Assembly: GCA_965217775.1 (NCBI GenBank)
Contig: CBDCJH010000002.1
Coordinates: forward strand, 2,464,001-2,528,000
DNA length: 64,000 nt
Source of the DNA: Acidobacteriota bacterium
Lineage (GTDB): Bacteria; Acidobacteriota; UBA6911; RPQK01; JAJDTT01
Direction of reading: 5' to 3'
A program made the position numbers and the translations under genes. Below the pieces are notes generated by a model, which was not told where the DNA came from, did no database searches, and was given only the letters and a program-made list of their open reading frames with translations. Below are positions 7,354 through 61,562 of this stretch, piece after piece (position 1 is the stretch's first letter; every line of letters begins with the position of its first letter).

Positions 7354-7441
7354 GCCGTGCCGGCGAACTTCGGTGGGATCGGAGGACGAGGACGAAGAGG
7401 GGGACAAGACTGTCCCCCTCCTGGCGGGGTCAGGCGCCGGG

Positions 7442-11867: not shown

Positions 11868-13511
11868 TCAGTTTCCCACGACTCGAAACCGGTCCTCCAG
11901 TTGTACCCGCTCGTCGCTGGAGGAATCCCGGGCCTCGACCTGGGCCAGATAGGTTCCGGGTTCCAGATCGCTCAAGTCCAGCTTCTTGGTCAGGACGACC
12001 CTCTCTTCGGAGAGGAACCGGATCGATTCCCCGGCGCTGTCGGTGACGTCCCGGACCAGTTGGCCGTTCCCGTTTCGGATCCGGTAGGAGACCTCCAGCA
12101 AGGGGGTGTTGGAGGTCTGATCCACCTTGAAATTGTACAGGTGCAGGTAGATCCCGAGGGGGATCTTCCGGGTGAACTTGCGGGCGATGCTGGGCCGGAG
12201 CTTGACGTCTCCGAAGACGAACATCTCGTCGCCTTCCGGCAGCTCCTCCAGTTCCCGCATGTGGTCGGAAAGAACCAGGGAGCTGGCGCTCAGTTTCTGG
12301 GACTCTTTCACGGAAGGGGGTGGTATCAGAGCGTGCCTGACGGCGCCCACGTTGTCGCTGTTGAGGTCCTTGACAATCAAGTCCAGCTTGTAGCGAGTAT
12401 TGTTGTCCAACAGCAGCACCTTCTGGTAGAGGGACCGGCTCTGCCGCCCCAACTCGATCCATCTGTCCGGATAGGCCACGGTCATGTCCTGATCGAATTC
12501 CTGGATGAACTTCTTTCCCATGCTGGTGACGGCGCCGTAGAGGCCGATCTGGGCGTAGTGGGAGGCGCCTTTCTGCTTGAAGGTCATGTCCCGGTTCTGC
12601 AACTCCACGGTGACGGGAATCAGCACCTTGTCCTGGTTCAACCTGAAGTAGTCGCTTCGAACCTGGAACGGGAGATTGGTGTAGTTCACCGTGACTTTGA
12701 CCAGATCCCGGAGGTCGTTGTACTTGATGGGCCGGGCGGCCTGAGCCTTGGCGAAGATCTCGAAACGGGTGAAGGGATGGTCCTGGCGCCGCATGTTCGC
12801 CCGGAGGTAGGGGTTGTGCATCTCGTCGGGATGCAAGCGCCTCCCCTTCTGGGTCAGGCCCAACCTTTCGCTGTCGGTCAGCCCCAACCCGGGCAGGCCG
12901 ATCAGCGCGTCCTTTTCGTCGGGATGAAGGGCGAGACGGTACTCTCCGGTGCGGGATTCGTCCACGAATTCCAGGGTGATGTCGCTCCCGAGCCCGTCGA
13001 TCTTTCGATAACGCCACCGTTCGAAGGGGTGGACGGTGGTGGTTCCCCCGCCTTCGTAGGACTCGCGGACATATTGGCCACCCCCGCCGAAGTCCTCGAT
13101 CTCGTCAGGCGGCCCGTGGATGATGTAGATTCGGCCGCGGTCCGATCTCCAACCCGATTTGCCGCTGTGGAACCGCTCGTTGGCATACGCGATGCGGCGG
13201 TAGTGCTCTTCCTTGAACTCGTTGATGGGGGTCCTGAGGTCCAGGTCCCGCCGATACCAGAACTGCTCGATGAACTGCTCCTTTTCGGCCTCGTTGGTGA
13301 GTCCGTCGAAGACGGCCTTCTCGTCTTCGGTGATGATGTAGATCACGTCCTCGGTGAGCCATTTCCGGAAGTAATCCTGCGACTCCTCGGCCTGTACCCG
13401 GCCGTCATCCTTCCGGTTGTTCTTCTCCTTGGCCCCCGAAGCGGAAAGCGGCGGGGCAAGCAGGGCGAACACGGCCAGGGACAACGGGAAGCGGGATTGG
13501 AAGATGTGCAT
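11868..13511 (-). CDS. GWxTD domain-containing protein
   Basis: WLTEDVIYII, FIEQFWYRRD, EEHYRRIAYANERF, GWRSDRGRIYI.HGPPD. Confidence 0.9.
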   Translation of the reverse strand: MHIFQSRFPLSLAVFALLAPPLSASGAKEKNNRKDDGRVQAEESQDYFRKWLTEDVIYIITEDEKAVFDGLTNEAEKEQFIEQFWYRRDLDLRTPINEFKEEHYRRIAYANERFHSGKSGWRSDRGRIYIIHGPPDEIEDFGGGGQYVRESYEGGGTTTVHPFERWRYRKIDGLGSDITLEFVDESRTGEYRLALHPDEKDALIGLPGLGLTDSERLGLTQKGRRLHPDEMHNPYLRANMRRQDHPFTRFEIFAKAQAARPIKYNDLRDLVKVTVNYTNLPFQVRSDYFRLNQDKVLIPVTVELQNRDMTFKQKGASHYAQIGLYGAVTSMGKKFIQEFDQDMTVAYPDRWIELGRQSRSLYQKVLLLDNNTRYKLDLIVKDLNSDNVGAVRHALIPPPSVKESQKLSASSLVLSDHMRELEELPEGDEMFVFGDVKLRPSIARKFTRKIPLGIYLHLYNFKVDQTSNTPLLEVSYRIRNGNGQLVRDVTDSAGESIRFLSEERVVLTKKLDLSDLEPGTYLAQVEARDSSSDERVQLEDRFRVVGN

Positions 13512-13832: not shown

Positions 13833-13990
13833 CAGTCCGTGGTGAAAGTCCCGCGAGCACCGAGACCGTTCCTGCGCCCGCCGGACAAGGCGCGATTCGG
13901 GAGCATACCGGGAGTATGTGATCGAATCGCAACGCAGTCCGCCGGGATGCAGGGACGGTCGGATGCCGTGGCGACTTTTGCCACGGGCTG
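13833..13990. mobile_element. 158-bp hairpin MITE, copy 1 (intergenic)
   Basis: TIR cagtccgtggtgaaagtc / gacttttgccacgggctg; TSD TTAG/TTAG. Confidence 0.92.
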
Positions 13991-14022
13991 TTAGGCCGCA
14001 CCTACCCTCCACGCCAAGCCGG

Positions 14023-14895
14023 CTACAGAAAGGATTGATCGCACGCAGCGATGGTGTCCTCATCGGTAGCCCTCTGATCCTCCCACTCGCTGCCCTCGAA
14101 CCAATACTGGCGGCGCTGCTCGAGCCAGCCATTAGACTCGTTGACCGTAATCCAGCCATTGAGGAAATTTAAAATATCGAGATCGCCTTTCCGCACGGCC
14201 ATCGCCAGCGGTTCCAAGGCAAACGGCTCCTCGGAGGGCTGGTGCAGGGTGTCCGGGTTGGCTTCAACCCATGTGGCCCCCGTCGACGCGAACGCTGCCG
14301 CAGCATCGACATCACCGGCAACCACGGCCTCGAGGACGTCGTTGTCGGTATCAAAGAGCTCGATCATGGCACTAGGAAAAACATTCTCGATCGCGGGGAT
14401 GGACGAAGCTCCGCTCCGGGTCCCAATCGTGACATCGGAGCTGTTGAAATCTTCCAGCGTCTCCAAGTCGGTGGTTTCCGCTGTATTCGCCACCAGATAG
14501 ACGCCAGTCAAGTTGTACGGTGACGTGAAATTGACCCTGAGATTACGGCTTGGAAGTATCGTCATACCACTGATGATGGCGTCAAAATCCTTCTCGAGCA
14601 GGGATGTGATGATGTATTTCCAGTTCGCCCGCTCAAATTTAACCTCTACCCTCAGATCCTCGGCCAATTTGGTCGCGACATCGATCTCAAAGCCAATCAG
14701 CTCGCCGTCGGCATTGCAGAGCGACCAAGGCTCGAACAGGCCCAGACCGACTCTGATCGTCCCACGGTCCTGGACCTTCTCAAGAACGCTGTTGTCAAAA
14801 GACCACCAGGGGAAAATCTGGGCCATCACCTGAGGGCTGGCACCGCCCATCAGGACAACAACGACTAAGCCACACACTACTTGCTTGCTTCGCAT
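14023..14895 (-). CDS. Polar amino acid ABC transporter substrate-binding protein (SBP family 3)
   Basis: Signal peptide; GTIRVG, GELIGFEIDVA, FDAIISGMTI..R..VNFT.PY, AVRKGD. Confidence 0.92.
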   Translation of the reverse strand: MRSKQVVCGLVVVVLMGGASPQVMAQIFPWWSFDNSVLEKVQDRGTIRVGLGLFEPWSLCNADGELIGFEIDVATKLAEDLRVEVKFERANWKYIITSLLEKDFDAIISGMTILPSRNLRVNFTSPYNLTGVYLVANTAETTDLETLEDFNSSDVTIGTRSGASSIPAIENVFPSAMIELFDTDNDVLEAVVAGDVDAAAAFASTGATWVEANPDTLHQPSEEPFALEPLAMAVRKGDLDILNFLNGWITVNESNGWLEQRRQYWFEGSEWEDQRATDEDTIAACDQSFL

Positions 14896-15171
14896 CGGAT
14901 ACCTCCTTTGAAGTAAAGATTCGCTCCAACCTTCAGCCCGGAATTCTCACCAGAAATGTTATTGGACACTAAACGAACGGAGCATAAGGAACGTGAACGT
15001 TTATTCACAAACTGTACCAAAAGCGGCGGAACGGATCGAGGCCGAAAGGAGGATTCAAGCGTCCCAACGAGTCCGTGCCGTAGAAGGGCAAGATCGAGTT
15101 AAAGGAAATAACTATTCAAGGAGATCATCCGCCGCCGCTTCCATGTCGACGAATGTCGATCAAACCGCGCG

Positions 15172-16482
15172 TCATGGCTTTTTCTGCAGGAGGCCCTCAG
15201 CAGCGCGCTGCCGCTCTTGGCTCCCCTCCTCTTCCAATCTCTGAAACCGTTCCAGTGAGACGCGAGCATCTTCCATCATCCCCAGCTTCCGGTAGACCTG
15301 GGCCAACTGGTAGTGGGGTTGTGGATCCCCGGGACCCAGTGCGATGGCCCGGTGGAGGGCGCCTTCGGCGGCCCGCAGTCGGCCCTTGGCCTCGTAGGCC
15401 GAAGCCAGAGCCACGTGGGCGTCCGGGAGCCTGACATCCACCTGCAACGCCCTCTCCAGGTGACGAATCGCCTGGTCGAACTGCTGCCGCGAGTTTTTGA
15501 TGATTCCCAATTCCAGGTTGACGATAGGGTGATGCGGATCGATCTTCAGCTCCTTCCGCAGCGCCGGCTCAGCCTTGTCGTATTGCCCCAGACCGAAGTA
15601 GATGTCCCCCAGGGCGAAGTTGACTCCGGGCGCGTCCGGGTTCAGGGCGACCGCTTGCTCGTACGCCTGCGCCGCCTCGTTCAGGTGTCCCCGGGCGGCG
15701 AAAAACTCGGCTCTGAGCTGATGGGACCGGAAGGAATTGGGTTCGACCTCGTCGATCCGGGCGATGGTCCGGTTGAAGCCGTCATCGCCGCCTTTCGTCA
15801 GATAAGCCTGGGCCAGCGTCTGCAAGGCTTCCAACTCCCGAGGATGGCTGCGGGTCAACGCCTCCAGATGTTCGATGCTCTCATCCACCCGTCCCAGCGC
15901 CAGGAAGCAGACGCCCAGATAGACCTGAGCCTTGACGTTCTTCGGGTCACGGGAGATCGCCTCCTGAAGGGCCCCTGCGGCCTCCGGGTACCGGTGGAGG
16001 CCGAAATAGGCGCGCCCCAGATAAAAATGGGCGTCGGGGAGATCGGGGTCGAGGGTCAGGGCACTGTGGATCGCATCGACAGCCGGGCCCAACCTTCCCT
16101 GGTATTGGTAGACCAGCCCCAACCGGACCATGATCTCAACAGTCCGTGGTGAAAGTCGCGCGAGCACCGAGACCGTTCCTGCGCCCGCCGGACAAGGCGC
16201 GATGAGGGAGCATACCGGGAGTATGTGACCGAGTCGCAACGCAGTCCGCCGGGATGCAGGGACGGTCGAATGCCGTGACGACTTTTGCCACGGGCTGTCA
16301 ACCCGTCCCGGCTGTAGTTCCAGGATACTGGTGTAGGACTTCTCGGCGGCTGGCCAATCGCCCCTCGCCTCCGCCTCCACGGCGGTTTGCAGTTGCCTCT
16401 GAACCGGGGTTTCCTGTCCAGCGGCCGATCCGGCCAAGGCCATCAGCGGAATCGTCGAGAGCAATAGCCAGAGACTCACCAT
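15172..16482 (-). CDS. Secreted TPR protein carrying an in-frame 54-aa MITE insertion
   Basis: Signal peptide and TPR repeats; removing 162 bp restores ILELQPGRVEIMVRLGLVYQYQG. Confidence 0.85.
   Translation of the reverse strand: MVSLWLLLSTIPLMALAGSAAGQETPVQRQLQTAVEAEARGDWPAAEKSYTSILELQPGRVDSPWQKSSRHSTVPASRRTALRLGHILPVCSLIAPCPAGAGTVSVLARLSPRTVEIMVRLGLVYQYQGRLGPAVDAIHSALTLDPDLPDAHFYLGRAYFGLHRYPEAAGALQEAISRDPKNVKAQVYLGVCFLALGRVDESIEHLEALTRSHPRELEALQTLAQAYLTKGGDDGFNRTIARIDEVEPNSFRSHQLRAEFFAARGHLNEAAQAYEQAVALNPDAPGVNFALGDIYFGLGQYDKAEPALRKELKIDPHHPIVNLELGIIKNSRQQFDQAIRHLERALQVDVRLPDAHVALASAYEAKGRLRAAEGALHRAIALGPGDPQPHYQLAQVYRKLGMMEDARVSLERFQRLEEEGSQERQRAAEGLLQKKP
16140..16297. mobile_element. 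158-bp hairpin MITE, copy 2 (in frame in TPR gene)
   Basis: Same TIRs; TSD TCAA/TCAA. Confidence 0.93.
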
Positions 16483-16785
16483 GGCATCGAAACCCGAACC
16501 GGTGCGATTCTGTCGCTGCGCTCGGTCTATGGACGCCGGTCCTTTCGGGGCGTTACTCCAAGGAAATCAGAAGCGGCCAGCCTCGTTGAGACTATAAAAC
16601 AGTCAATTCCGGGAACACAGCAGCGACCAATCCGGGCTCGTTCCCAGAAGCACGAGTCCTCATGCCTCGGACTCCAGCGCATACCCTCGAGAACCACTTT
16701 CTCACTCCCTTTCTTGTGGTTTACGTTTATGCTGGCACCATCGAAACCGTCCAACACCCGGTTAGTCCCAACTGGAGGAACGACA

Positions 16786-17199
16786 ATGACCAAGATCTGC
16801 ACCTGCATCACGATAGCGCTTATTTTTTTCGTCCCGAATCTTCTTTCCCAGAAAGAGGAGGCCAGGCAACAAGACAAGTTCCTGCTTCTGGCCACCAGCC
16901 GGACCGGTACCATGGAGAAAGAACTCAACGAAACCGGCTCGCGCGGCTACCGCTTTGCCGGCACCCAGGGGGGCGAGACCGCCTTCGGCGGCAACGAGGT
17001 GGTCGTCATCATGTCGCTGGACCCCGAAGGCCGGCGTTTCCGCTACCTGCTCCTCGCAACCAGCCGGACCAGCACGATGCAAAAAGAGATGAACGAGGCG
17101 CCCCCGGAGTACGAGTTCGCCGGGATGACCGTGTTTCAATCCAGGTTTGGCGGAAAAGAAGCCGCTGTCATCCTCGAGGCGGAGATCAAAGAGGAGTGA
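16786..17199 (+). CDS. Small secreted hypothetical protein with an internal duplication
   Basis: GGAGG RBS, signal-like N-terminus, LLATSRT.TM.KE.NE occurs twice. Confidence 0.75.
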   Translation: MTKICTCITIALIFFVPNLLSQKEEARQQDKFLLLATSRTGTMEKELNETGSRGYRFAGTQGGETAFGGNEVVVIMSLDPEGRRFRYLLLATSRTSTMQKEMNEAPPEYEFAGMTVFQSRFGGKEAAVILEAEIKEE

Positions 17200-17361
17200 C
17201 CGTTGACGTCGGCAACCGGGAATTTACCCAGGGTCAAGTAAACAACCTAGGAGCCTGCGCCGCAGTGCGGCAGCCCGTAGGGTTGTGTCTAGAGAAGTAC
17301 GTTTGGCCTTTGTGAGAATTCCTGATCGGCGATGCTTCTGTTCATCCGTTCCAGTGTTTGA

Positions 17362-17519
17362 CAGTCCGTGGTGAAAGTCCCGCGAGCACCGAGACCGTTC
17401 CTGCGCCCGCCGGACAAGGCGCGATTCGGGTGCATACCGGGAGTATGTGCCCGAATCGCAACGCAGTCCGCCGGGATGCAGGGACGGTCGAATGCCGTGA
17501 CGACTTTTGCCACGGGCTG
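17362..17519. mobile_element. 158-bp hairpin MITE, copy 3 (upstream of vapBC)
   Basis: Same TIRs; TSD TTGA/TTGA. Confidence 0.92.
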
Positions 17520-17580
17520 TTGAAGCCGCGCAAACGTATTGCGCCGCCACCTAACCAGTTCGCCAAGACAATTTCAGTTT

Positions 17581-17609
17581 GATGCTATGATGTGTCGATG
17601 CTACGATGT
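17581..17609 (+). promoter_or_regulatory. Direct-repeat operator candidate for vapBC autoregulation
   Basis: gatgctatgatgt and gatgctacgatgt immediately before the antitoxin start. Confidence 0.5.
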
Positions 17610-17613
17610 TCTC

Positions 17614-17838
17614 ATGAGAACTACAGTCACCATCGACGACGATGTGTTGGCCGTGGCGCGTACTCTTGCAGCAATGAAAGACATCAGTCTGGGGAGCGCT
17701 TTGTCAGACTTGGCGCGGCGCGGCTTCAGGCGAACTCAGACCAGATACGATGACGGCGTTCCCGTATTCCACGTTGACGCCGATGCGGCCCCGATCACGA
17801 GTGAGGACGTACGGAAAGCCCTCAGCGATTGGCCATGA
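17614..17838 (+). CDS. vapB: VapB-type RHH antitoxin
   Basis: MRTTVTIDDDVL..AR.LA......LGSALSDLARRG; ATGA overlap with the toxin. Confidence 0.88.
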   Translation: MRTTVTIDDDVLAVARTLAAMKDISLGSALSDLARRGFRRTQTRYDDGVPVFHVDADAAPITSEDVRKALSDWP

Positions 17839-18269
17839 TCCGCTTGCTCGACGTCAACGTGCTCATTGCGCTGACATGGCCCAACCACGTACACCATGAC
17901 GTAGCGCGGTCGTGGTTTACGGAGGTCCGCACCGACGGATGGGCCACCTGCCCGCTGACCGAAGCCGGATTTGTGCGCATTTCCTGTAACCCGTCTGCCG
18001 TCAAACAGTCCATAACGGCCACCGATGCGATTGCGCTGTTGGCCAAGCTCAGAAAGCTGGAGTCGCATTCCTTCTGGGCCATGGATCTTTCCATCGTCGA
18101 TCTGCCGCCGGGAATCCTCAGGAGGATTCAAGGATACCGCCAGATCACCGACGCTGTTCTCCTGGCCCTTGCAATCCAGTTTGGGGGGCAGCTCGCCACT
18201 TTTGATTCGGGGTTCACCGATCTGTTGGCGCGGGAAGAACTCCAGTCTGTTCGTATGATTCCCATATGA
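17835..18269 (+). CDS. vapC: VapC PIN-domain toxin
   Basis: LLDVNVLIAL..P.HVHH, WATCPLTEAGFVR, QITDAVLLALA, LATFD. Confidence 0.93.
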   Translation: MIRLLDVNVLIALTWPNHVHHDVARSWFTEVRTDGWATCPLTEAGFVRISCNPSAVKQSITATDAIALLAKLRKLESHSFWAMDLSIVDLPPGILRRIQGYRQITDAVLLALAIQFGGQLATFDSGFTDLLAREELQSVRMIPI

Positions 18270-18435
18270 GCAAACAACAATCGATACACCAGACCAGAAT
18301 CGGGGGGCCAATCCGTCACAGCCCGAGAATCGGCGGCTGGGAAGCGCCCGTTCCCAAATCGACCCGGGCGTTTTTGACAGGCCGTCCCCCTTCCCTTATC
18401 TTCTGCGGGCCAATTCTCAAGGGAGGCTCCCTGAC

Positions 18436-19224
18436 GTGAAGGACAATCGGGTACGTCAAAAGATCATCGCGGGCGAAGCGGCCGTCGGATGCTTTCTGGG
18501 ACTGGGCAGTCCCTCGGTGGCCGAGTTGCTGGCCTACTCGGGGTACGAATGGCTGCTGGTCGAAACCGAGCACAACGCCCTGGATTCGGCTCAGGTCGAG
18601 CACATGCTCATGGCCATCGACGGTTCCGGCGCCATGCCCATGGTCCGGGTCCCGCCCTCGGACCTGTTCGCCATACAGAAGGCTCTGGATATAGGCGCCA
18701 TGGGGATCATCGTCCCCATGGTGAAGACCGTGGAGGAGGCGGAGGCGGTGGTGGCCGCCACCCGTTATCCTCCGGAAGGAAAGCGAGGCTTCGGGCCTCT
18801 GCGGGCGTCCCGCTACACCCTCGACTACGAGGACTACCTGGAACGGGCCAACCGGAACATCCTGGTGGGCCTGCTGCTGGAGACCGCCGAGGCAGTGGAG
18901 GACCTGGAGCGGATCGCTTCGGTGCCCGGGGTCGACCTGCTCTACATGGGCATGTGGGACCTGTCGCTGGCTCTGGGCGTGGACCCCAGGCGTCAGCCGA
19001 ATCCCGAGACGGACGCCGTGATCGACAAGGCTCTGCAGGTGGGCCGGGACACCGGCGTGGCCATCGGCATCGGCGTCGGGAGCCCGGAAGACCTGGCGCA
19101 CCGCCTGGAGCAGGGATTCACCTTCCTGGGCTACGGGAGCGACTACAGCCTTCTGCTCGGCGGGGCCAAGTCCGCCTTGGAAACCTTTCGGGCCTCCCAA
19201 TCCGGGAGGCCGGAGAGCGGCTGA
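18436..19224 (+). CDS. HpcH/HpaI aldolase family protein
   Basis: VETEHNA, PMVRVP, LDIGAMGIIVPMV, RYPPEGKRG, ETAEAV. Confidence 0.92.
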   Translation: MKDNRVRQKIIAGEAAVGCFLGLGSPSVAELLAYSGYEWLLVETEHNALDSAQVEHMLMAIDGSGAMPMVRVPPSDLFAIQKALDIGAMGIIVPMVKTVEEAEAVVAATRYPPEGKRGFGPLRASRYTLDYEDYLERANRNILVGLLLETAEAVEDLERIASVPGVDLLYMGMWDLSLALGVDPRRQPNPETDAVIDKALQVGRDTGVAIGIGVGSPEDLAHRLEQGFTFLGYGSDYSLLLGGAKSALETFRASQSGRPESG

Positions 19225-19226
19225 CA
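19094..19226 (+). repeat. 133-bp direct repeat of the aldolase 3' end, copy A (copy B at 21035-21167)
   Basis: Offset 1941 bp; 6 substitutions between the copies. Confidence 0.93.
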
Positions 19227-19261
19227 TCCCGGAACCGGCGGACGCACATAGTGACGCCTAA

Positions 19262-19420
19262 CAGTCCGTGGTGAAAGTCCCGCGAGCACCGAGACCGGTC
19301 CTGCGCCCGCCGGACAAGGCACAACGGAGGGAGTATACCGGGAGGATGTGACCGAGTCGCAACGCAGTCCGCCGGGATGCAGGGACGGTCGAATGCCGCG
19401 ACGACTTTTGCCACGGGCTG
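19262..19420. mobile_element. Hairpin MITE, copy 4 (159 bp, intergenic)
   Basis: Same TIRs; flanks CTAA/TTAA; 1-bp insertion in the central arm. Confidence 0.9.
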
Positions 19421-19449
19421 TTAAGAACGAAACCCGCCCCATCGTTGGA

Positions 19450-19708
19450 TCACGTCGCCGAACGTCGCCAGTGCCGCATGGTTCGAGGACTCATGCCGAT
19501 GATCTCGTCAGCCTGGATCCAGTTGGTCTGCCCACAATTTGCCCCGTGTACGACGTCCTGCACCTTCATCAACCGCTCCACGGCCCGCGGTGAAACCAGC
19601 ACGATGCCCGACGTCTCAACGTCGGGGAAGAATGATCATCCTGATCCCACGCCTGCCGGATCGGACAGGTCACGTGCTGGCGGGACCGGATATTTTGCCT
19701 ACTGACGA
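19450..19708 (-). pseudogene. Remnant of an ISNCY/IS481-like transposase N-terminus plus terminal sequence
   Basis: Translates AVERLMKVQDVV..WIQADEIIGMSPRTMRHWRR*; end-like motif cggacaggtcacgtg..ccggatattttg near 19660-19708. Confidence 0.6.
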
Positions 19709-19788
19709 CCGAGGCAACTCGTTTCGTTGACGATACGGCTGGAAATTAGGTACAATACTTTGTACATTATTGGTGGAGGTGATGCAAC

Positions 19789-20265
19789 GTGGCTGAGGAA
19801 TACATTCCCATAAGCAAGGCGCGGGCCGAGATTGCCAAATGCGCCAACTTAGCTCAAACGCAGATGCGGCGCTATGTGTTAACAACTCAGGGTGACCCAA
19901 AGGTCGTCTTGCTCGGATACGAAGATTACCGTACCCTGAAAGCGACTGCCAGTCTTGCGCGCCGCCCAGAAGTCATCAGGAACATCCGCAATGGAATGGC
20001 TCATATTCGTGAGGGCAAGACGATCCCGCTCGCAGAGTTTGAACGGCAAGCGAAATTCGCCGCTAAACAAGCCCGAGACAGGGTTTTCATCGTCACAGAT
20101 CCATCTGGACACTTCTCACACCAGGACATAGCGTCCGCTTTGGAAGAAATGGGTCTAACGTTGAGTGTTCAAAAGCCTGCAGAGCCCGTTCAGTCGTACT
20201 CAATGGATTTGTTTGCGGAAAGGCCAGCCGCTAGCGCCAAGTCAAGACAAGCTGGCAATAAATGA
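19789..20265 (+). CDS. Phd/YefM-family antitoxin with C-terminal extension
   Basis: IPISKARAEI, YVLTTQGDPKVVLLGYEDY..LKAT, IREGKTIPL; low GC. Confidence 0.8.
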   Translation: MAEEYIPISKARAEIAKCANLAQTQMRRYVLTTQGDPKVVLLGYEDYRTLKATASLARRPEVIRNIRNGMAHIREGKTIPLAEFERQAKFAAKQARDRVFIVTDPSGHFSHQDIASALEEMGLTLSVQKPAEPVQSYSMDLFAERPAASAKSRQAGNK

Positions 20266-20553
20266 GACAGTTGCTCCGAGTAACTGTACACAAAAACCTA
20301 GAAACACCAAGTATAGCCCCAACAACGAGTAGGCACGCCTTTCATCGTTGACCTTGCCAAGCCGAGATGCGATCTCAGCGGAACGGACGACCTCACCTCG
20401 ACCCCTTCGGACCAGCACCCAGACAATACGAATCCCTCGCTTAGCGAAGCCCGGCAACGAAAACGGATGGTATGATCTGGCCATCATCAGCGCGCCCATG
20501 ATTCCGAGGGTCGCACCCGAAATCGAAAAGAAATATCCCAGAGATGCCAACAC
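20242..20553 (-). CDS. Small membrane protein with two hydrophobic segments
   Basis: Hydrophobic N- and C-terminal helices; low-GC islet. Confidence 0.55.
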   Translation of the reverse strand: MLASLGYFFSISGATLGIMGALMMARSYHPFSLPGFAKRGIRIVWVLVRRGRGEVVRSAEIASRLGKVNDERRAYSLLGLYLVFLGFCVQLLGATVSFIASLS

Positions 20554-20574
20554 TTTTATCTGCTCTTTCCCATT

Positions 20575-20817
20575 TTAAGGAAGGTAAATTTCGACGACTT
20601 CCACCGCGTCACTTGTTCTGTATAGTATTGCGAATCTCCCCACATCCAAGCGATAAAGTTGATGCCCCAGTATCGGGTAGCCACTGCGGGATTGCGTTGC
20701 CACACTCCTGAGAGCTGCGCAGACGGAATCGATTTCTTGATCGCTGGGACGGAATTGAATGAACTGCTCAAAGGCACTTTCCGCAACCGTGACCTCTTTG
20801 ACTGAACGTGATGCCAT
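20575..20817 (-). CDS. RelE/ParE-like toxin
   Basis: 80 aa; VTVAESAFEQF, LYRLDVGRFAILYR..VEVVEI. Confidence 0.6.
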   Translation of the reverse strand: MASRSVKEVTVAESAFEQFIQFRPSDQEIDSVCAALRSVATQSRSGYPILGHQLYRLDVGRFAILYRTSDAVEVVEIYLP

Positions 20818-21034
20818 ACTTTTCCTACATAGGGTAATGTTTCGAATGCATTCAGTACAATCGGTGTCCAGGACCCATTCGCTTGTTTTCGGCGCTGGCG
20901 TTCAAGGCCAAGCCAGAGTCCGAAGCACGGACCCGGACGATTGAATTTATCGCCGCTCAATCTCCGAAAGCGTCACCCCAAAGGGGGTGCTGGCCCACAT
21001 CGAGTCTGGCTGGACCGACCCGGGCTCGGGTGAA

Positions 21035-21167
21035 TGGCGCACCGGCTGGAGCAGGGGTTCATCTTCCTGGGCTACGGGAGCGACTACAGCCTTCTGCTCG
21101 GCGGGGCCAAGTCCGCCCTGGAAACCTTTCGGGCCTCCCAATCCGGGAAGGCGGAGAGCGGCTGACA
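21035..21167 (+). repeat. Direct repeat of the aldolase 3' end, copy B (displaced fragment)
   Basis: Encodes AHRLEQGFIFLGYGSDYSLLLGGAKSALETFRASQSGKAESG*. Confidence 0.93.
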
Positions 21168-21181
21168 CCGCGCCAAGCGAT

Positions 21182-22189
21182 TCAACTCCCTTCCTGCCGC
21201 CCCCAGCGGTCGTAGAGGAAGTCGGCCAGGGCGCTGAAGATGAGCAGGGCGCCCACGGCCACCTGCTGCACAAAGACCGAGATGCCCAGGATGTTCAGGG
21301 CATTGCGGACGATCTGAAAGAAGATCACGCCCAACAGCGTCCCCGGCATGGAGCCCCGTCCCCCGTACAGGCTCGTCCCCCCGATGACCACCGCCGCGAT
21401 GACGTCCAGCTCGGCCCCGGTCCCCGCCAGGGTGAGGGCCGAGTTCAGACGGGCCGCCAGCAGAATCCCCGCAAAGGAAGCCAGTCCGCCGCTCAGGGCG
21501 TAGAGCAGGAACTGGTGGCGCTTGACGCGGACCCCCAGGCGGCGGGCCGTTTCGGGATCGTTGCCGATGGCGAAGGTGTAGCGCCCGAAGCGGGTCTTCA
21601 CCAGCACCAGGTGGCCGATCAGGTAGACCGCCGCGGTGATCAACACCAGCACGGGGATCGGACCGATGCGCCCCTTGCCCAGAAACAGGAAGCTCTCCGG
21701 GAGGCCGACGATGGAGTTGCCGCTGGTCAGGAACATGACGGTGCCCCGGGCGACGTTGAGCATCCCCAGGGTCATGATGAAGGCTGGGATTCTGCCGTAG
21801 GCCACGGCGACGCCGTTGACCGCACCGGCGGCGGTCCCCACCAGCAATCCACCCACGATAGCGGCCGGGACCGGGATCCCGGAGACCAGGAGTCCGGCCG
21901 TTCCCATGCTCCCCAGGGCCAGGATCGAGCCCACCGAGAGGTCGATCCCGGCGGCAATGATGACGAAGGTCATACCGGCCGCGACGATGGCGTTGATGGA
22001 GAGCTGTTCCAGGATGTTGAGGAAATTTCGAGTGGTGAGAAAGACGGGAGAGATCATGGACACGACGGCCACCAGAATCAGGGTGGCCGCCAGCAGCGCC
22101 TTGAGCCGGGTGAGCTTCAGCAAGGCGGGATGCAGACCCCGGCTCGTCAAGCGGGAGACCAAAACTTGAAGCGAACGATTCCAATCCAC
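21182..22189 (-). CDS. Sugar ABC transporter permease (RbsC-like)
   Basis: GMTFVIIAAGIDLSVGS, IPAFIMTLG, TRFGRYTFAIG, ELDVIAAVVIGGTSL.GGRG. Confidence 0.93.
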   Translation of the reverse strand: MDWNRSLQVLVSRLTSRGLHPALLKLTRLKALLAATLILVAVVSMISPVFLTTRNFLNILEQLSINAIVAAGMTFVIIAAGIDLSVGSILALGSMGTAGLLVSGIPVPAAIVGGLLVGTAAGAVNGVAVAYGRIPAFIMTLGMLNVARGTVMFLTSGNSIVGLPESFLFLGKGRIGPIPVLVLITAAVYLIGHLVLVKTRFGRYTFAIGNDPETARRLGVRVKRHQFLLYALSGGLASFAGILLAARLNSALTLAGTGAELDVIAAVVIGGTSLYGGRGSMPGTLLGVIFFQIVRNALNILGISVFVQQVAVGALLIFSALADFLYDRWGRQEGS

Positions 22190-22196
22190 GGGCCGG

Positions 22197-23003
22197 TCAA
22201 CTCCTGGACGGAAGCGGGCCCTTCAGCATCAGGTCGACGACCTCGTCCTGGTTCGTGGAACGGGTCCTCAGGTCGGCCACCGTCGCCCCCTTCCTCATGA
22301 CCACGATCCGGTCGGCGATGGAGAAGATGTCGTCCAACTCGTGACCGATCACGATCAGGGAGACTCCCTCGTCCCGAAACCTCCGGATCAGGTCCAGCGT
22401 CTTTCGGGTCTCCGCGACCCCCAGGGCCGCCGTCGGTTCGTCCATCAGGATCAGCTTGGCGCGGGCCAGTAGGGCACGGGCCAGGGCTACCGCCTGGCGC
22501 TGTCCCCCCGAAAGGTAACGCACCCGGGTTGAGGCGCGGAAGTCGTAGCCGAGCCTGCGGATCAACTCTTCCGCCTTGGCCTTCATGGACTTCTCCGCCA
22601 GCCAGCGGAGCCCGGGGACGCCCCGGCGCCACTCCCGTCCCATGAAGATGTTGGCGGTCACGTCCAGTTCGCCCAGGAGCGCCAGGTCCTGGTACACCGT
22701 CTCGATCCCATGGTGACGGGCCTCGGCGGGGCTTCCCGTTCGAAGCGGCCGGCCTTCCATGAGGAACCGTCCCCCATCGGGTCGATCGACGCCGGAGATG
22801 AGGTGGATCAGTGTCGATTTTCCGGCCCCGTTGCCGCCCACCAGGCCCACGATCTCAGCCCGGCCGACGGTGAGATCGGCGCCGTCGACCGCCGTCAGCG
22901 CGCCGAATCGTTTGGTGATACCCACCGCCTCCAGGAGAGCTGCGCGGCCGGCCCCGCCAGCGGGTCCGGTCGCGGTTCCGGAGGCGCTTTCCGGCTCGCT
23001 CAC
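22197..23003 (-). CDS. Sugar ABC transporter ATP-binding protein
   Basis: GTG overlaps the SBP stop; GGNGAGKST, GIETVYQDLAL, LSGGQRQ, MDEPTAALG. Confidence 0.92.
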   Translation of the reverse strand: MSEPESASGTATGPAGGAGRAALLEAVGITKRFGALTAVDGADLTVGRAEIVGLVGGNGAGKSTLIHLISGVDRPDGGRFLMEGRPLRTGSPAEARHHGIETVYQDLALLGELDVTANIFMGREWRRGVPGLRWLAEKSMKAKAEELIRRLGYDFRASTRVRYLSGGQRQAVALARALLARAKLILMDEPTAALGVAETRKTLDLIRRFRDEGVSLIVIGHELDDIFSIADRIVVMRKGATVADLRTRSTNQDEVVDLMLKGPLPSRS

Positions 23004-24130
23004 AGGAGCGGCTCCCCGCTCTCGATCTGCCGGATGAACTCGTCCACGTTCTCCCTCGTCACCAGGACCACGCCGGTGTCGGTGAAGGGTGTAGATTCGA
23101 TGCCGCGGCGGAATTTGACCAGACTGTCGACGCCGGAATAGCCCATCTTGGCGGGAAACTGGGCGACCATGGCGTCCAGCTCGCCACGCTTGACCGCCTC
23201 CAGGTCCCCCAACCCCGCTTTGCCGATGGAACCGCGGCCCACTACCATCAGATCCTCGCCCAGGTTCTTTCCGAAGGCCCCGGCCGCCTGGGTGGCGCAG
23301 AGAACCGCGGGACCACCGAAGATGTAGAGACCGGCCAGATCGGGATGCGCCGTCAGCAGATCGGTGGTGGCGTTGAAGGACTGGTCGCAGAAGGGAACTC
23401 CCAGCGGAGACCCCACCATTTCCAGGTCGGGATACTTGCGCAGGCCTTCCACGAAACCGTTCATGATTTCCCGGCAGGGCAGAATGCTGGGCGGACAGGC
23501 GATGACGCCGACCTTCCCTCGATCCGAAAGGCGGTCGGCCAGCCGGTCGGCGGCCACGGTGCCGCAAAGGACATTGTCGGTGGCGGCGAAAGTGACGATA
23601 TCCCCCTCGGCGATCCCGGTGTCGATGACGGTGATGGGAATCCCGGCCTGGTTCACCTTCGACACGGCAGGCGACAGGGCGTTGGAATCGCAGGGCGCCA
23701 GCACGATGCCGTCCACTTCCAACTGAATCATGTTCTCCACGATCTGGACCTGATCCACGACATGAGTCTCGCTCTTGGCGGCGTGCAACAGCAGTTCCAC
23801 CCCCAGCTCCTCTGCCGCCCGTTGGGCGCCGTCGATGGCGTCCAGCCAGAAGGGATCGGTGTAGGACTTGGAGATGAAGGCGATCCTCAGCCGTCCGTCG
23901 CGGGAGGGATCGGGAACCGGCGCCGCGCAGGCCCAGAGCAGCAGCAGCGGGAGCAGGATCGCTAGCAGTCCGTGGGAAAAGTCCCATGAGCACCGAGACC
24001 GTTCCTGCGCCCGCCGGACAAGGCGCGATGAGGGAGCGTATGTGACCGAGTCGTAACGCAGTCCGCCGGGATGCAGGGACGGTCGAATGCCGTGACGACT
24101 TTTTCCACGGGCTGCTTGGCATCGGGTCAT
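23000..24130 (-). CDS. Sugar ABC substrate-binding lipoprotein (RbsB-like) with an in-frame 51-aa MITE insertion in its signal peptide
   Basis: DPFW, VDGIVLAP, GIPITVID, ATDN, QFPAKMG; removing 153 bp gives MTRC(L/Q)AILLPLLLLWAC with a lipobox. Confidence 0.85.
   Translation of the reverse strand: MTRCQAARGKSRHGIRPSLHPGGLRYDSVTYAPSSRLVRRAQERSRCSWDFSHGLLAILLPLLLLWACAAPVPDPSRDGRLRIAFISKSYTDPFWLDAIDGAQRAAEELGVELLLHAAKSETHVVDQVQIVENMIQLEVDGIVLAPCDSNALSPAVSKVNQAGIPITVIDTGIAEGDIVTFAATDNVLCGTVAADRLADRLSDRGKVGVIACPPSILPCREIMNGFVEGLRKYPDLEMVGSPLGVPFCDQSFNATTDLLTAHPDLAGLYIFGGPAVLCATQAAGAFGKNLGEDLMVVGRGSIGKAGLGDLEAVKRGELDAMVAQFPAKMGYSGVDSLVKFRRGIESTPFTDTGVVLVTRENVDEFIRQIESGEPLL
23966..24114. mobile_element. 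Hairpin MITE, copy 5 (149 bp, in frame in SBP gene)
   Basis: Same TIRs; flanks CTAG/CTTG; 9-bp deletion (ataccggga) at the hairpin tip. Confidence 0.9.
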
Positions 24131-24338
24131 GACGAGCCGGACACTAACACGTTCCGGGAGCCCCTTGCAGGATTCCCCGGACGGCGATACGGCTTGCCTC
24201 ACGGCATCGGATTCAATACCTTAAGTCGAGTGCCGGAGGGCTTGGCCACGTGGGCCAGGCCGACCGGTCTGGGAGTCGAATCCATTGATTGGAACGCCCA
24301 CTCGTTCCACAACGAGCGGCGCGGAAGAGGAAAGCAGC

Positions 24339-25088
24339 ATGCCCGGAAAACTGGACGGCAGGGTGGCGATCATCACCGGCGGCGGTAGCGGCTTGGGCGC
24401 GTCCACGGCCAGACTCTTCGCGGCCGAAGGGGCCAAAGTGGTCATCGCCGACGTCAACGTCGATGCGGGAACAGGGGTGGTCCGATCCCTCCAGGATGAC
24501 GGGACCGAAGCCCTCTTCGTCAAGACCGATGTCTCGTCGGCGGCCGACGCCCGCAACCTGATGGAGGAGACCGTCGCCCGGTTCGGCCGGATCGACATCC
24601 TCGTCAACAACGCCGGCGTCCAAGTGGAAAAGGCGGTGCCCGAAACCACCGAGGAGGATTGGGACTTCGTCCTGGGCGTCAATCTGAAGGGGCCGTTCCT
24701 CTGCTCCAAATACGCCATCCGGCAGATGCGCAAGCAGAAATCGGGGAACATCGTCTGCATCTCGTCCCTCTCCGGCGTGGTTTCCAACGGAGAACAGGCT
24801 TCCTACAACGCCTCCAAACACGGCCTCATCGGCCTGGCCAAGTGCATGGCCCACGACCACGCCCTGGAGGGCATCCGGGTGAACACGGTCTGTCCCGGCT
24901 CCATGAACACACCCATGCTGGACGGGGTGCCGGAGGAACACCTGGCGCCCTACCGCAAGAGCAACCTGCTGGAGAGGTTCGCCGATCCGGGAGAGGTGGC
25001 CAACTGCATTCTCTTTCTGGTGAGCGACGATGCCTCCTTCGTCACCGGCTCGGTTCTGGTGGCCGACGGGGGCTATACCACCAAGTGA
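24339..25088 (+). CDS. Short-chain dehydrogenase/reductase
   Basis: TGGGSGLG, ILVNNAG, YNASKHG, ADGG; paralogue of 6541-7353. Confidence 0.93.
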   Translation: MPGKLDGRVAIITGGGSGLGASTARLFAAEGAKVVIADVNVDAGTGVVRSLQDDGTEALFVKTDVSSAADARNLMEETVARFGRIDILVNNAGVQVEKAVPETTEEDWDFVLGVNLKGPFLCSKYAIRQMRKQKSGNIVCISSLSGVVSNGEQASYNASKHGLIGLAKCMAHDHALEGIRVNTVCPGSMNTPMLDGVPEEHLAPYRKSNLLERFADPGEVANCILFLVSDDASFVTGSVLVADGGYTTK

Positions 25089-25152
25089 TGCCGGACCGTC
25101 CGGCTGCCGAGGCCGGCGCCCCGGAGATACGAACCGAAAGGAGTCAAATCGG

Positions 25153-25662
25153 ATGTACCTGAAGAAGATCGACCACATCGCCGTCATGGTGAGCGACATC
25201 GAGAAATCCCTGCACTTCTATCGCGATCTGCTGGGCCTGGAGGTGGTGACTCCGGAAGAGCACATCGCGGGTCCGGTGGCGGAGATGGTGGACAAACCGG
25301 GCTGCCACATGCGCGAGTACCGCATGCGGGCTCCGGAGGGCGTCCAGGGCTACGACCGGAACGACGAAGGGGTGGCGTTGACCTTCGACATCATCCAGTG
25401 GTTGAAACCGGAGAGCCCCCAGGCGAGATACGAGGTCCACCACGTGCCCAGCGCGCACATCTGTTTCGGAGTGGAGAACCTGCCCGCGATCTACGAACGA
25501 TTGAAGGCGGAGGGCGTCGAGTTCATCTCGCCTCCGGTCCGCTTCTCGGGTGAGGGGGACTGGCACGTGCTCTTCTTCTACGATCCCGACGGGAACCTCC
25601 TGGAGCTGAACGAGACCGGCACCGGAGGCCAGATCGTGCACGATTTCGAGTGGAGCGAATAA
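25153..25662 (+). CDS. VOC/glyoxalase family protein
   Basis: IDHIAVMVSD, HHVPSAHICF, FFYDPDGNLLEL; paralogue of 7442-7933. Confidence 0.9.
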   Translation: MYLKKIDHIAVMVSDIEKSLHFYRDLLGLEVVTPEEHIAGPVAEMVDKPGCHMREYRMRAPEGVQGYDRNDEGVALTFDIIQWLKPESPQARYEVHHVPSAHICFGVENLPAIYERLKAEGVEFISPPVRFSGEGDWHVLFFYDPDGNLLELNETGTGGQIVHDFEWSE

Positions 25663-25918
25663 CGTCGGGGCAACCCTCGGGGTTGCCCTTCCTTTACGTG
25701 CGCCGTGGACTTCTCCTGACCCACCGCGACCGGACACACCCACCGGCCATGGCGTGTCGATATCGCGGTGACCGTTGCGGTTGCCCGGGTCCGGCAGGCG
25801 GGCAGAATCAATCCGGCCCCATGAGTTCGTCGCCGGGCGGCGAGTCTGAACGACTCGAGCTCCACGATTGGAGTGATTACCCGGGTTCATCGACTTGGCG
25901 CGGCGTGGCGGGGACGGA

Positions 25919-26800
25919 TCATTCGACCCTCAGGAGGCGGAAACCCAGGTAGTGGTAGCGATTGCCGGGGACGACGCCGGCGCGATACGCCGACCGGCTG
26001 CCGAGAGCGTCGTGGCTCCAACCGCCCCCTCGACGGACCCGAAGGGAGCCCGTCGCAGGGCCCTTGGGATCTGTGACACTGCCTCCCGGGTACTCCCCGT
26101 AGCGGTCCTCTACCCACTCCCACGCGTTCCCCAGCATGTCGTGCAGCCCGAAATCATTCGCAGCCTTCTCCCCCACCGGATGGGTCCCGCACCAAGTTGA
26201 CGGGTACTGCTTTTCCTTCCAGTCCGAACAATCGACCCCGCCCTCGTACCTCACCCCGCTGTTGCCGCCGTACCACGCGATCCTGTCCAACATCGGCACG
26301 TTGTTGACCCCCGCCAAATCCAAATCTCCTGCCGGCGTGTCCGTTCGAGTTCCCGCCCGCGCCGCGTACTCCCACTCGGCCTCCGTCGGCAACCGGTACC
26401 TCGCACCTTCCCCCATGCCGTTCAGCTTCCTGACGAACTGCTGCACGTCGTCCCACGAAACACTCTCCACCGGGCAATCTCGACCGCAGTTCTTGAAATC
26501 CGAGGGATTCGATCCCATCACCGCCTCCCATTGACCCTGAGTCACCTCGTATTTCCCCAGATAAAACGCCCGGCTGATCTTCACCCGAGTCACCGGTCTC
26601 TCGTCATCGTCCGCCAACCCGCTCTCCGACCCCATCCGGAACTCGCCGGCCGGTACCCGCACGAACTCCATTCCGAGGCTGTTGCTCCACTTTGCCGGCG
26701 TTGAGGCTTCTTCCTGAGCCGCCAGGCCCCCAGCAAGGAGGAGGACAGTCCACCCGGCCGCGGTCCCACGCCGACACCATGAAAACAAGTTTCCGATCAT
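25919..26800 (-). CDS. FGE-sulfatase (formylglycine-generating enzyme-like, CLec fold) domain protein
   Basis: GEFRMGS, KYEVTQGQW, PVESVSW, YRLPTEAEWEYAARAG, FGLHDMLGNAWEW, RVRRGGGW, LGFRL. Confidence 0.93.
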   Translation of the reverse strand: MIGNLFSWCRRGTAAGWTVLLLAGGLAAQEEASTPAKWSNSLGMEFVRVPAGEFRMGSESGLADDDERPVTRVKISRAFYLGKYEVTQGQWEAVMGSNPSDFKNCGRDCPVESVSWDDVQQFVRKLNGMGEGARYRLPTEAEWEYAARAGTRTDTPAGDLDLAGVNNVPMLDRIAWYGGNSGVRYEGGVDCSDWKEKQYPSTWCGTHPVGEKAANDFGLHDMLGNAWEWVEDRYGEYPGGSVTDPKGPATGSLRVRRGGGWSHDALGSRSAYRAGVVPGNRYHYLGFRLLRVE

Positions 26801-26846
26801 GTTTCCTCCGCTCGGCTCCGGTTGGTATTCGTTGGCCTGCTATTAA

Positions 26847-27004
26847 CAGCCCGTGGCAAAAGTCATCACGGCATTCGACCGTCCCTGCATCCCGGCGGAC
26901 GGCGTTGCGATTCGGGCACATACTCCCGGTATGCACCCGAATCGCGCCTTGTCCGGCGGGCGCAGGAACGGTCTCGGTGCTCGCGGGACTTTCACCACGG
27001 ACTG
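26847..27004. mobile_element. 158-bp hairpin MITE, copy 6 (opposite orientation)
   Basis: cagcccgtggcaaaagtc...gactttcaccacggactg; TSD TTAA/TTAA. Confidence 0.92.
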
Positions 27005-52003: not shown

Positions 52004-52133
52004 TGGGAGGGGGGACATCCCTGTCCCCCTCTTCATCCCCGGCGCGAAACCGGCGGCTGGAAAGGTAGTGGGAGGGGGGACATCCCTGTCCCCCTCTTCA
52101 TCCCCGGTGCGGAACCGGCGGCTGGAAAGGTAG
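52004..52133. repeat. 65-bp tandem repeat x2 containing a REP palindrome
   Basis: tgggaggggggacatccctgtccccctcttcatcccc...ggaaaggtag twice. Confidence 0.85.
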
Positions 52134-58079: not shown

Positions 58080-58153
58080 TAGATTCCAGTCACCTTTGCT
58101 TCAACTTTCGCCACGGACTGCTAGGATACCCAGAATTGGAAGGAGAGACTCCC

Positions 58154-59041: not shown

Positions 59042-59076
59042 CCCTCCGGCTGCGGGAGAAGGGCATCAGGCCGGAA

Positions 59077-59141
59077 ATGAAGAGGGGGACAAGATGTCCC
59101 CCCTCCTCGTATGAAGAGGGGGACAAAATGTCCCCCCTCCT
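59077..59141. repeat. 34-bp tandem REP x2
   Basis: atgaagagggggacaaRatgtcccccctcct twice. Confidence 0.8.
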
Positions 59142-60998: not shown

Positions 60999-61562
60999 CT
61001 GGACACGGTCGACATCCAGTTGGCTTTCAGCCGGGACGGCCGGACCTGGGAACGCGCCGGAGGACGCAACGTCTTCCTGCCTCTGGGGACCCAGCCCGAA
61101 GCCTTTGACCGCAGCATGGTCTACGTGATGCAGCACCCGCTCGTGGTGGAGGATGAGATCCGGATCTACTACGTCGGCTTCAGCGGCCTCCACTGGGCGA
61201 CCCGCCGGGAAGAGGTCCAGGGAGGCAAGGTGGGTCTGGCAAAACTTCGCCTGGACGGTTTCGTGTCCATCGACGCCGGGAACGGAGTCTTGACCACCAA
61301 GCCGATCCGGATGTCCGGAGAAAGGCTCCTGGTCAATGCCGATGCCGGTGAAGGGTCGGTCGCGGTTGAGATTCTGGAGCCCGGGGGAACACCGATCGAG
61401 GGATTCGGCCGGAAAGACGCGGTGGCAGCCAAGGGTGACAGCCTGCGGCATACCATGAAGTGGACCCAGGGCTCGGACGTCGGTGGCTTGAAAGGGCGCT
61501 CCATCGTGCTGAAGTTCCACCTCGACCGCAGCAGGCTCTTTTCATTTCGTTTCGCCGATTGA
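60999..61562 (+). pseudogene. Duplicated 3' fragment of the glycosidase gene
   Basis: LDTVDIQLAF...FRFAD*, no native start. Confidence 0.88.

Follow-up and report, generated by a model that had tools for sequence, protein, structure and literature searches.

The DNA analysed here is a 64-kb window (positions 2464001-2528000 of contig C2) of the genome G000 of an uncultured acidobacterium (6.43 Mb, 62% GC, two contigs), in which six copies of a 158-bp hairpin element with the ends CAG...CTG lie within 13.2 kb. We refer to this element as a MITE (miniature inverted-repeat transposable element). An earlier note on the same DNA had located the six copies at the positions given below and attributed the sequence to the Acidobacteriota, and both statements held. 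A seventh full copy was not found within the 64-kb window, the only other trace being a solitary 18-nt terminal repeat at about 58103..58120 (- strand) with two mismatches to the MITE end, followed by CTAG and with no body attached. Six copies in 13.2 kb is the genome maximum; since 6.3% of random placements also reach six, the clustering is not significant.

Copy 1 (13833-13990, + strand, 158 nt, duplication TTAG/TTAG) is intergenic and lies between a GWxTD-domain gene (11868-13511, -) and an SBP_bac_3 gene (14023-14895, -). Copy 2 (16140-16297, +, 158 nt, duplication TCAA/TCAA) forms an in-frame insertion of 54 codons, read on the stop-free strand of the element in frame -1, in the gene for a secreted TPR-repeat protein (15172..16482, -), which has 436 aa with the insert and matches Pfam TPR families from residue ~133. 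The insertion site is between two repeats, the signal peptide being upstream and TPR repeats downstream of the insert, and the orthologues in the congeneric genomes G007, G008, G004 and G006, which align over the full length at 80-85% identity, lack exactly the 54 insert residues and are otherwise colinear. Copy 3 (17362-17519, +, 158 nt, duplication TTGA/TTGA) is intergenic and has an empty-site allele in an RNA-library contig of run X18, which connects position 17357 to 17520 and thereby skips 162 nt.

Copy 4 (19262-19420, +, 159 nt, flanks CTAA/TTAA) is likewise intergenic, downstream of an HpcH/HpaI aldolase gene, and lies inside a 1.9-kb segment that is flanked by 138-nt direct repeats (19094-19231 and 21035-21172, 94% identical) and also holds a Phd/YefM-type antitoxin open reading frame (ORF); G007 lacks this segment in its entirety, and a contig of RNA run X16 skips it. 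Copy 5 (23966-24114, +, flanks CTAG/CTTG) is a 149-nt deletion variant and forms an in-frame insertion of 51 codons, in frame -2, in the gene for a periplasmic sugar-binding lipoprotein (23000..24130, -; Peripla_BP_4 in Pfam; 376 aa with the insert) of an ABC-transporter operon, a few codons past the start and before the hydrophobic core of the signal peptide and the lipobox. Copy 6 (26847-27004, -, 158 nt, duplication TTAA/TTAA) is intergenic and upstream of an FGE-sulfatase gene (25919-26800, -).

The 4-bp duplications are thus perfect at four copies and imperfect at two (copies 4 and 5), as had been read from the window. The claim that copies 2 and 5 are genic, with the stop-free orientation, different frames and open ORFs, is borne out by the orthologues and empty sites, which were compared for copy 2 in four congeners and for copy 5 in G006, G005, G002 and G003. 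The syntenic region of G007 has precise empty sites for copies 1, 2, 3 and 6 and a private MITE copy near window position 15100. At the copy 6 site, which is precisely empty in G007, a 160-nt MITE of G006 (L139) adjoins the same right flank, which points to either an old shared copy that was lost in G007 or one target used repeatedly. Parts of the stretch were also found in four metatranscriptome runs as assembled contigs that break at the repeat; those of X16 and X17 (2074 and 2296 nt) stop at 23962, the edge of copy 5, and are uninformative on read-through, excision and expression level. The RNA-library contigs of X15 and X18, which match parts of the stretch at at least 95% identity (over half of them at at least 99%), come from runs labelled 'sponge metagenome', which hints at sponges as a habitat of this organism or of one closely related to it.

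The inverted repeats of the MITE are imperfect and approximately 18 bp long, 15 of 18 positions agreeing between the two 18-nt ends, and they are conserved across copies. The consensus folds as a single long rod, a near-perfect hairpin with a minimum free energy as RNA of -106 kcal/mol for one strand and -90 kcal/mol for the other, so that the ends, repeats and fold described from the six copies were all recovered by comparison of the ends and folding of the consensus. In a search of Rfam with copy 1 and its flanks nothing reached the gathering level, the one match (E 0.94) being to an unrelated viral stem-loop. The element carries no transposase gene and is small and multi-copy (158 bp, 270 loci in 6.43 Mb).

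Together with one 4-bp duplication the 158-bp element amounts to 162 bp or 54 codons, which is true of 149 of the 214 full copies in the genome. The 162-bp unit claimed from the window therefore stands for most copies; copy 5 departs from it as a deletion variant, with 153 bp including the duplication, which is again a multiple of three (149+4). One strand of the consensus is free of stops in all three frames; its complement is open in frame 0 and has two stops in frame 1 and a single stop in frame 2. The per-copy tally sums to 182 of 214 full copies with all three frames of one strand open, and in 73 of 214 the frames +0 and +2 are open together with the whole minus strand. Frame +2 is opened by a TGC variant located in the stem close to the hairpin tip, and copy 3 belongs to this TGC subfamily, in agreement with the five of six open frames reported for it. 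Open copies encode basic peptides, with a pI of 10.6-12.0 and a high content of Pro, Gly and Ser. Among the open in-frame copies the frames -0, -1, -2, +0 and +2 are all in use; because all three stop-free frames are used, the family has no single conserved peptide.

For the genome-wide census an nhmmer profile built from 212 copies was used, and its 369 hits were merged into 270 non-overlapping loci (265 on C2 and 5 on C1). Of these, 214 are full-length (149 of 158 nt, 35 of 159 nt, 20 of 160 nt and 10 of other lengths), and the 149 copies of 158 nt have a mean identity of 96.6% to the consensus. Perfect 4-bp duplications flank 154 of the 214 full copies and define the target as C|NTAR|G, with T in 91% and A in 86% of the perfect sites and with flanks that are not AT-rich. 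Elsewhere in the genome a 434-bp repeat whose ends look similar was considered and rejected, being a diverged tandem repeat and not this MITE.

The MITE is present in all eight other species of the genus, and it was not found in any of six genomes of the sister genus or of 26 other genomes of the order that were searched; it is specific to one genus of uncultured Acidobacteriota. Precise empty sites in congeners were found for several loci besides copies 1, 2, 3 and 6 of the window, and from the presence/absence differences between G000 and G007 the family has therefore been recently active.

Pairs of the terminal motif outside the MITEs define an insertion sequence (IS) of 1475-1476 bp with three full copies, two of which are identical to each other (C2:310455-311929 and C2:316892-318366) and 84% identical to the third (C2:2325898-2327373). 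Its duplications are CTAG or TCAA, its ends are identical to the right end of the MITE, and the terminal repeats common to both read CAGYCCGTGG...AAAGTC. The 452-aa ORF of this IS passes the Pfam cut-offs for DUF772 (60 bits, cut-off 23.1) and DDE_Tnp_1_6 (26.7 bits, cut-off 25.1), and its best NCBIfam model is IS1182 (E 3.5e-50), with 171 bits under the curated cut-off of 270. A short duplication at a TA-centred target is a trait of the IS1182/IS5 families and is seen in this IS too. Relatives of the transposase appear from their records to be common in uncultured Acidobacteriota; the same ends were found at 75 of 79 fetched related IS loci, 61 of those 75 having perfect 4-bp duplications, mostly YTAR, and both end variants of the MITE occur among related IS loci in other genomes. 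A candidate IS5/IS1182-like mobiliser, as the earlier note had suspected, is hence present in the genome with the same ends, duplication and C|NTAR|G-like target, and to judge from these its DDE transposase probably moves the MITE in trans. The likeness of MITE and IS is confined to the terminal 17-18 nt and their interiors are unrelated, so the MITE is not a simple internal-deletion derivative.

Elements of 1.67-1.75 kb with MITE ends were also considered as the autonomous parent and rejected, since they are MITE copies that carry an IS110-family insertion (C2:1656568-1658241, in L002; 3134809-3136482; 5760147-5761892; 6039542-6041287). All four genome copies of this 1.5-kb IS110-family element, which matches the NCBIfam model 'IS110 family RNA-guided transposase' with 217 bits (cut-off 140), are inside MITEs at one and the same point (70|71), close to the tip of the hairpin. 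Two of the composites have a 72-nt duplication of the 3' end of the IS. Three of the four have perfect 4-bp duplications of the MITE type, so that the composites may also move as units. A natural case is thereby provided of a site-specific RNA-guided transposase with a MITE as its landing pad.

For comparing genic with intergenic copies, genes were called with a dicodon log-odds model that was trained iteratively on long ORFs, followed by greedy selection (4590 genes, 85% coding density). Before the calling, every full MITE was taken out of the genome sequence together with one copy of its duplication, and the calls are therefore blind to MITE orientation. Expected counts for the 214 full copies were derived from random sites matched for the duplicated 4-mer. 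A first classifier, which asked for coding sequence in both 80-codon flanks, found only 7 of 214 copies to be genic and missed copies 2 and 5 of the window, and was replaced.

Gene interiors proved to be strongly depleted, with 20 copies observed against 115 expected, and 151 copies were intergenic against 78 expected. The remaining copies were on a stop codon that is kept by the duplication (14 against 4.4), in the last 25 codons (13 against 9.0) or in the first 12 codons (16 against 7.1). Survival of an interior insertion relative to intergenic sites is thus approximately 9%. With its intergenic majority, its depleted interiors and the 11 verified in-frame inserts described below, the family does not insert peptides into host proteins as its main behaviour, contrary to what the earlier note had put at the centre of its description.

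The genic copies that persist are a biased sample. Their length with the duplication preserves the frame in 19 of 20 interior copies vs 101 of 151 intergenic ones (Fisher p = 0.008), and the interior and N-terminal copies are in the stop-free orientation in 25 cases and in the stop-bearing orientation in 11 (binomial p = 0.029). In the last 25 codons the ratio is reversed (2 stop-free vs 11 stop-bearing, p = 0.022), most of the 11 stop-bearing copies ending the protein at a stop inside the element, and the contrast in orientation between the two groups is significant (Fisher p = 0.0011). Genic copies are hence random neither in orientation nor in length modulo three, and the outcome that had been set beforehand as refuting the original proposal did not occur. 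At whatever distance from the neighbouring genes, intergenic copies were not biased in orientation, and their distribution over tandem, divergent and convergent spacers (85/39/27) is close to that expected (83/38/30). The predicted ORF is open and in frame in 24 of the 63 copies in the coding-sequence classes (13 interior, 8 N-terminal and 3 C-terminal). Among the 20 interior cases seven do not stay open in frame: five run into a stop within the insert or at its edge, and two are read through into another frame, one being a copy of 159 nt and the other lying in a low-scoring ORF that holds a second MITE.

Comparison with homologues verified 11 in-frame inserts (~5% of full copies), nine of them in the stop-free orientation; this count leaves out L013, L016 and L023. 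Both flanks match one contiguous gene in relatives for L018, L019, the second copy in L020, L021 and L022, and the ORF of G000 is intact for copy 2 of the window, L019, the second copy in L020, L021 and L022. L015 is an outer-membrane barrel of the TonB-dependent type whose Pfam match reaches up to the insert, and the insert of L017 splits the N2 domain of a copper amine oxidase (Pfam). In an outer-membrane efflux protein (L029) and a PQQ beta-propeller protein (L031) the insert is in the N-terminal part of the signal peptide, at sites that are empty in five congeners, so that with copy 5 three separate insertions of this type are present. The L018 sulfatase lacks its N-terminal part in comparison with the 745-aa ORF of G007, and the L017 copper amine oxidase ends early in comparison with 679-aa orthologues; on the basis of these truncations both genes look like decaying ones. 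For L014 (784 aa) no homologue was found in five congeners at E 1e-35. Three copies are not genic because they precede the true start: those at a GAPDH gene (L012) and at an AlgH-like gene (L030), and the first of the two in L020. In the congeners, eight loci have long ORFs that span a MITE; in six of the eight the MITE precedes the first Pfam domain or there is no Pfam match, and these six are therefore ambiguous and were not counted as genic.

Copy 5 allows an insertion to be followed over time. It is common to G000 and G007, at the same site and with the same private variants, which identifies it as one ancestral insertion, and the site is empty in the four genomes compared. The G007 copy has the 158-nt form, from which that of G000 differs by an indel of 9 nt (three codons), so that the host gene is in frame in both species. 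Orthologues of the host gene are present in all eight congeners. Over the 320 codons downstream of the insert G000 and G007 differ with dS 0.115, dN 0.025 and omega 0.22, vs 2 synonymous and 6 non-synonymous changes (omega ~1.2) in the block encoded by the MITE. The host gene has thus been under purifying selection with the insert in place, and the insert sequence is unconstrained. No in-frame ATG, GTG or TTG was found between the ancestral start and the hydrophobic core. A copy of the MITE in the signal peptide of two species lends itself to a simple test of the amount of additional sequence that such a peptide can accommodate.

The reading that we favour, with a probability of roughly 75%, is that of an ordinary MITE, a minority of whose genic insertions pass the filter of selection thanks to properties that it has by chance. 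The in-frame appearance of the genic copies would be a result of that filter and not the function of the element, the removal of disruptive insertions explaining the observed bias better than a built-in tolerance for coding sequence. In mechanistic terms, the DDE transposase of the 1.48-kb IS1182/IS5-like IS would move the 158-bp MITE in trans by cut and paste; insertion itself would be near random, and most insertions into genes would then be purged by selection. Survival would be aided by three properties that the element may have by chance, namely the unit of 54 codons, the one stop-free strand and the early stop on the other strand. The surviving genic inserts, as 54-residue, basic and probably unstructured segments, are found at permissive sites, namely linkers that join domains, the space between TPR repeats and the N-terminal part of signal peptides. 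Towards the 3' end of a gene most survivors have the stop-bearing orientation, with which the protein terminates after a short tail. Several observations weigh against this account. Open genic copies are no younger than intergenic ones, their mean identity to the consensus being 0.968 vs 0.966 (p = 0.74), and thus show no sign of being lost. A single genome and small samples of 36 and 13 copies underlie the statistics, and the class counts are approximate because the gene finder was home-made and gave at least three false 'genic' calls. Two of the three full IS copies, the identical pair, diverge from the third past approximately residue 332, which indicates a frameshift in that pair. Finally, at least five open frames occur in only 1.8-5.4% of the control sequences described next, so that some selection on the element itself is possible.

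An alternative, which we regard as improbable, is that the family was shaped at the level of the element for life inside genes, as a 'protein-coding palindrome' similar to the Rickettsia palindromic elements (RPEs), with its length, stop-free strand and flexible basic peptides as adaptations; some inserts might then have been co-opted, for example as extended N-regions of signal peptides or as linkers. It would account for the 162-bp unit in 149 of 214 copies, the fully open strand in 182 and the additionally open frames +0 and +2 in 73, as well as for the three separate signal-peptide insertions, the maintenance of an open copy 5 in two species despite the 9-nt indel, and the age of open genic copies, which equals that of intergenic ones. 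Control sequences nevertheless reproduce most of the frame properties. Of the dinucleotide shuffles of the consensus, 11% had one fully open strand, 14% had at least four of six frames open and 1.8% at least five; for random genomic 158-mers the figures are 15%, 26% and 5.4%. The prior for a length divisible by three is 1 in 3. By these rates neither the open strand nor the 162-bp length stands out, the copies with +0 and +2 open being a possible exception, and a design for coding tolerance is not upheld; for the variant that opens +2 a structural cause is also possible, given its location in the stem near the tip. The depletion of interiors to ~9% survival, the ~5% of copies verified in frame as compared with 'nearly half' for RPE families in a 2024 review (PMC10969869), the use of all three frames without one conserved peptide and the omega of ~1.2 in the MITE-encoded block of copy 5 likewise argue against adaptation of the element. 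That it represents a second, independent case of 'protein-coding palindromes' outside Rickettsia, with some of the basic flexible peptides kept by the host, is correspondingly doubtful.

At the other extreme, the genic copies could be irrelevant to proteins, their host genes being dead or dying or the MITE lying upstream of the true start, with the open frames as a by-product of a stop-free strand at 62% GC. The three copies upstream of true starts (L012, L030 and the first in L020), the truncated L018 and L017, the 7 of 20 interior cases that are not open in frame and the six ambiguous congener ORFs are all of this kind. Evidence to the contrary comes from copy 2, L019, the second L020 copy, L021 and L022, where both flanks correspond to a single contiguous gene in relatives and the G000 ORF is intact, and from copy 5, whose host gene occurs in all eight congeners, has evolved at omega 0.22 since the insertion and offers no alternative start before the core. 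Neither the position-dependent orientation bias nor the length bias would be expected if coding context were irrelevant, and we consider this the least probable of the explanations weighed here. The favoured reading, an ordinary MITE filtered by selection, makes the family a clean and countable example of how selection acts on a small transposon after its burst, in an uncultured phylum that has been little studied: approximately nine in ten interior insertions were lost, and which copies survive depends on frame, orientation and position in the gene.

The family also carries a warning for annotation: in GC-rich genomes the stop-free strand of a repeat extends ORFs upstream and mimics a genic insertion. 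In the window, most of the upstream part of the ABC ATPase ORF (22197-24122, -) overlaps, in a different frame, with the binding-protein gene; the Pfam ATPase domain of this ORF is found only at residues 413-565, which places the true start far downstream, and the ORF is another example of GC-driven over-extension.

The window has other repeats besides the MITE. A second small palindromic repeat, unrelated to it and with the core GGGGGACA...TGTCCCCC, occurs at 7383-7422, 52004-52133 and 59068-59141 and includes two 65-nt units in tandem. Tandem repeats of 66 nt and 72 nt with 60-72% identity, which probably encode repeat-domain proteins, form long arrays at 4877-5602, 49783-50828 and 52466-53511, and the region at 49.8-54.2 kb is itself duplicated at ~76% identity. 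At 60157-60456 and 60999-61298 at least 300 nt are repeated at 99% identity, 842 nt apart.

Among known systems, REP and BIME elements make no duplications and are mobilised by RAYT. The acidobacterial MITE differs from them in its 158 bp, its 4-bp duplications and its ends of the DDE type, REP/BIME palindromes being 20-40 bp long (PMC3733652). Closer in habit are QMITE1 and QMITE2 of Coxiella burnetii, which, according to PMC5896051, overlap the ends of ORFs and have occasional in-frame copies, the QMITE2 palindrome being the target of IS1111, an IS110-family element; the likeness lies in copies that are mostly intergenic or at gene 3' ends and in an IS110-family element at a fixed position of the MITE (four copies here). 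The present family is set apart from the QMITEs and from ERIC and Correia elements by sequence, duplication length, host phylum and partner IS, the comparison with intragenic ERIC and Correia elements drawing partly on general background and partly on the review PMC10969869.

The same review describes in-frame fusions by intragenic MITEs as not unusual and RPEs as the extreme case, nearly half of the copies of coding RPE families being in ORFs and each family having a conserved peptide. RPEs resemble our element as palindromic repeats of ~150 bp that lie in frame in genes and add a peptide while the ORF stays open (PMC10969869). Of the RPE-like character attributed to the family in the earlier note, the in-frame copies with open ORFs stand, but they are much rarer here (~9% of full copies in predicted interiors, ~5% verified in frame, with strongly depleted interiors), all three frames are used without a conserved peptide, in contrast to the one peptide per RPE family, and the acidobacterial MITE has clear terminal repeats, duplications and a candidate transposase. 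The closest fit is with MITEs of the IS5/IS1182 type, which are small, share their ends with a resident IS, have a 4-bp TA-centred duplication and a rod-like hairpin, and occur in hundreds of mostly intergenic copies with presence/absence differences between species; the difference is that only the terminal 17-18 nt resemble the IS here. A literature search on MITEs and Acidobacteria gave no description of this family among the matches listed, as judged by their titles and the beginnings of their abstracts. To judge from that search the MITE family is new, and its rare in-frame genic copies are a known behaviour of bacterial mini-transposons.

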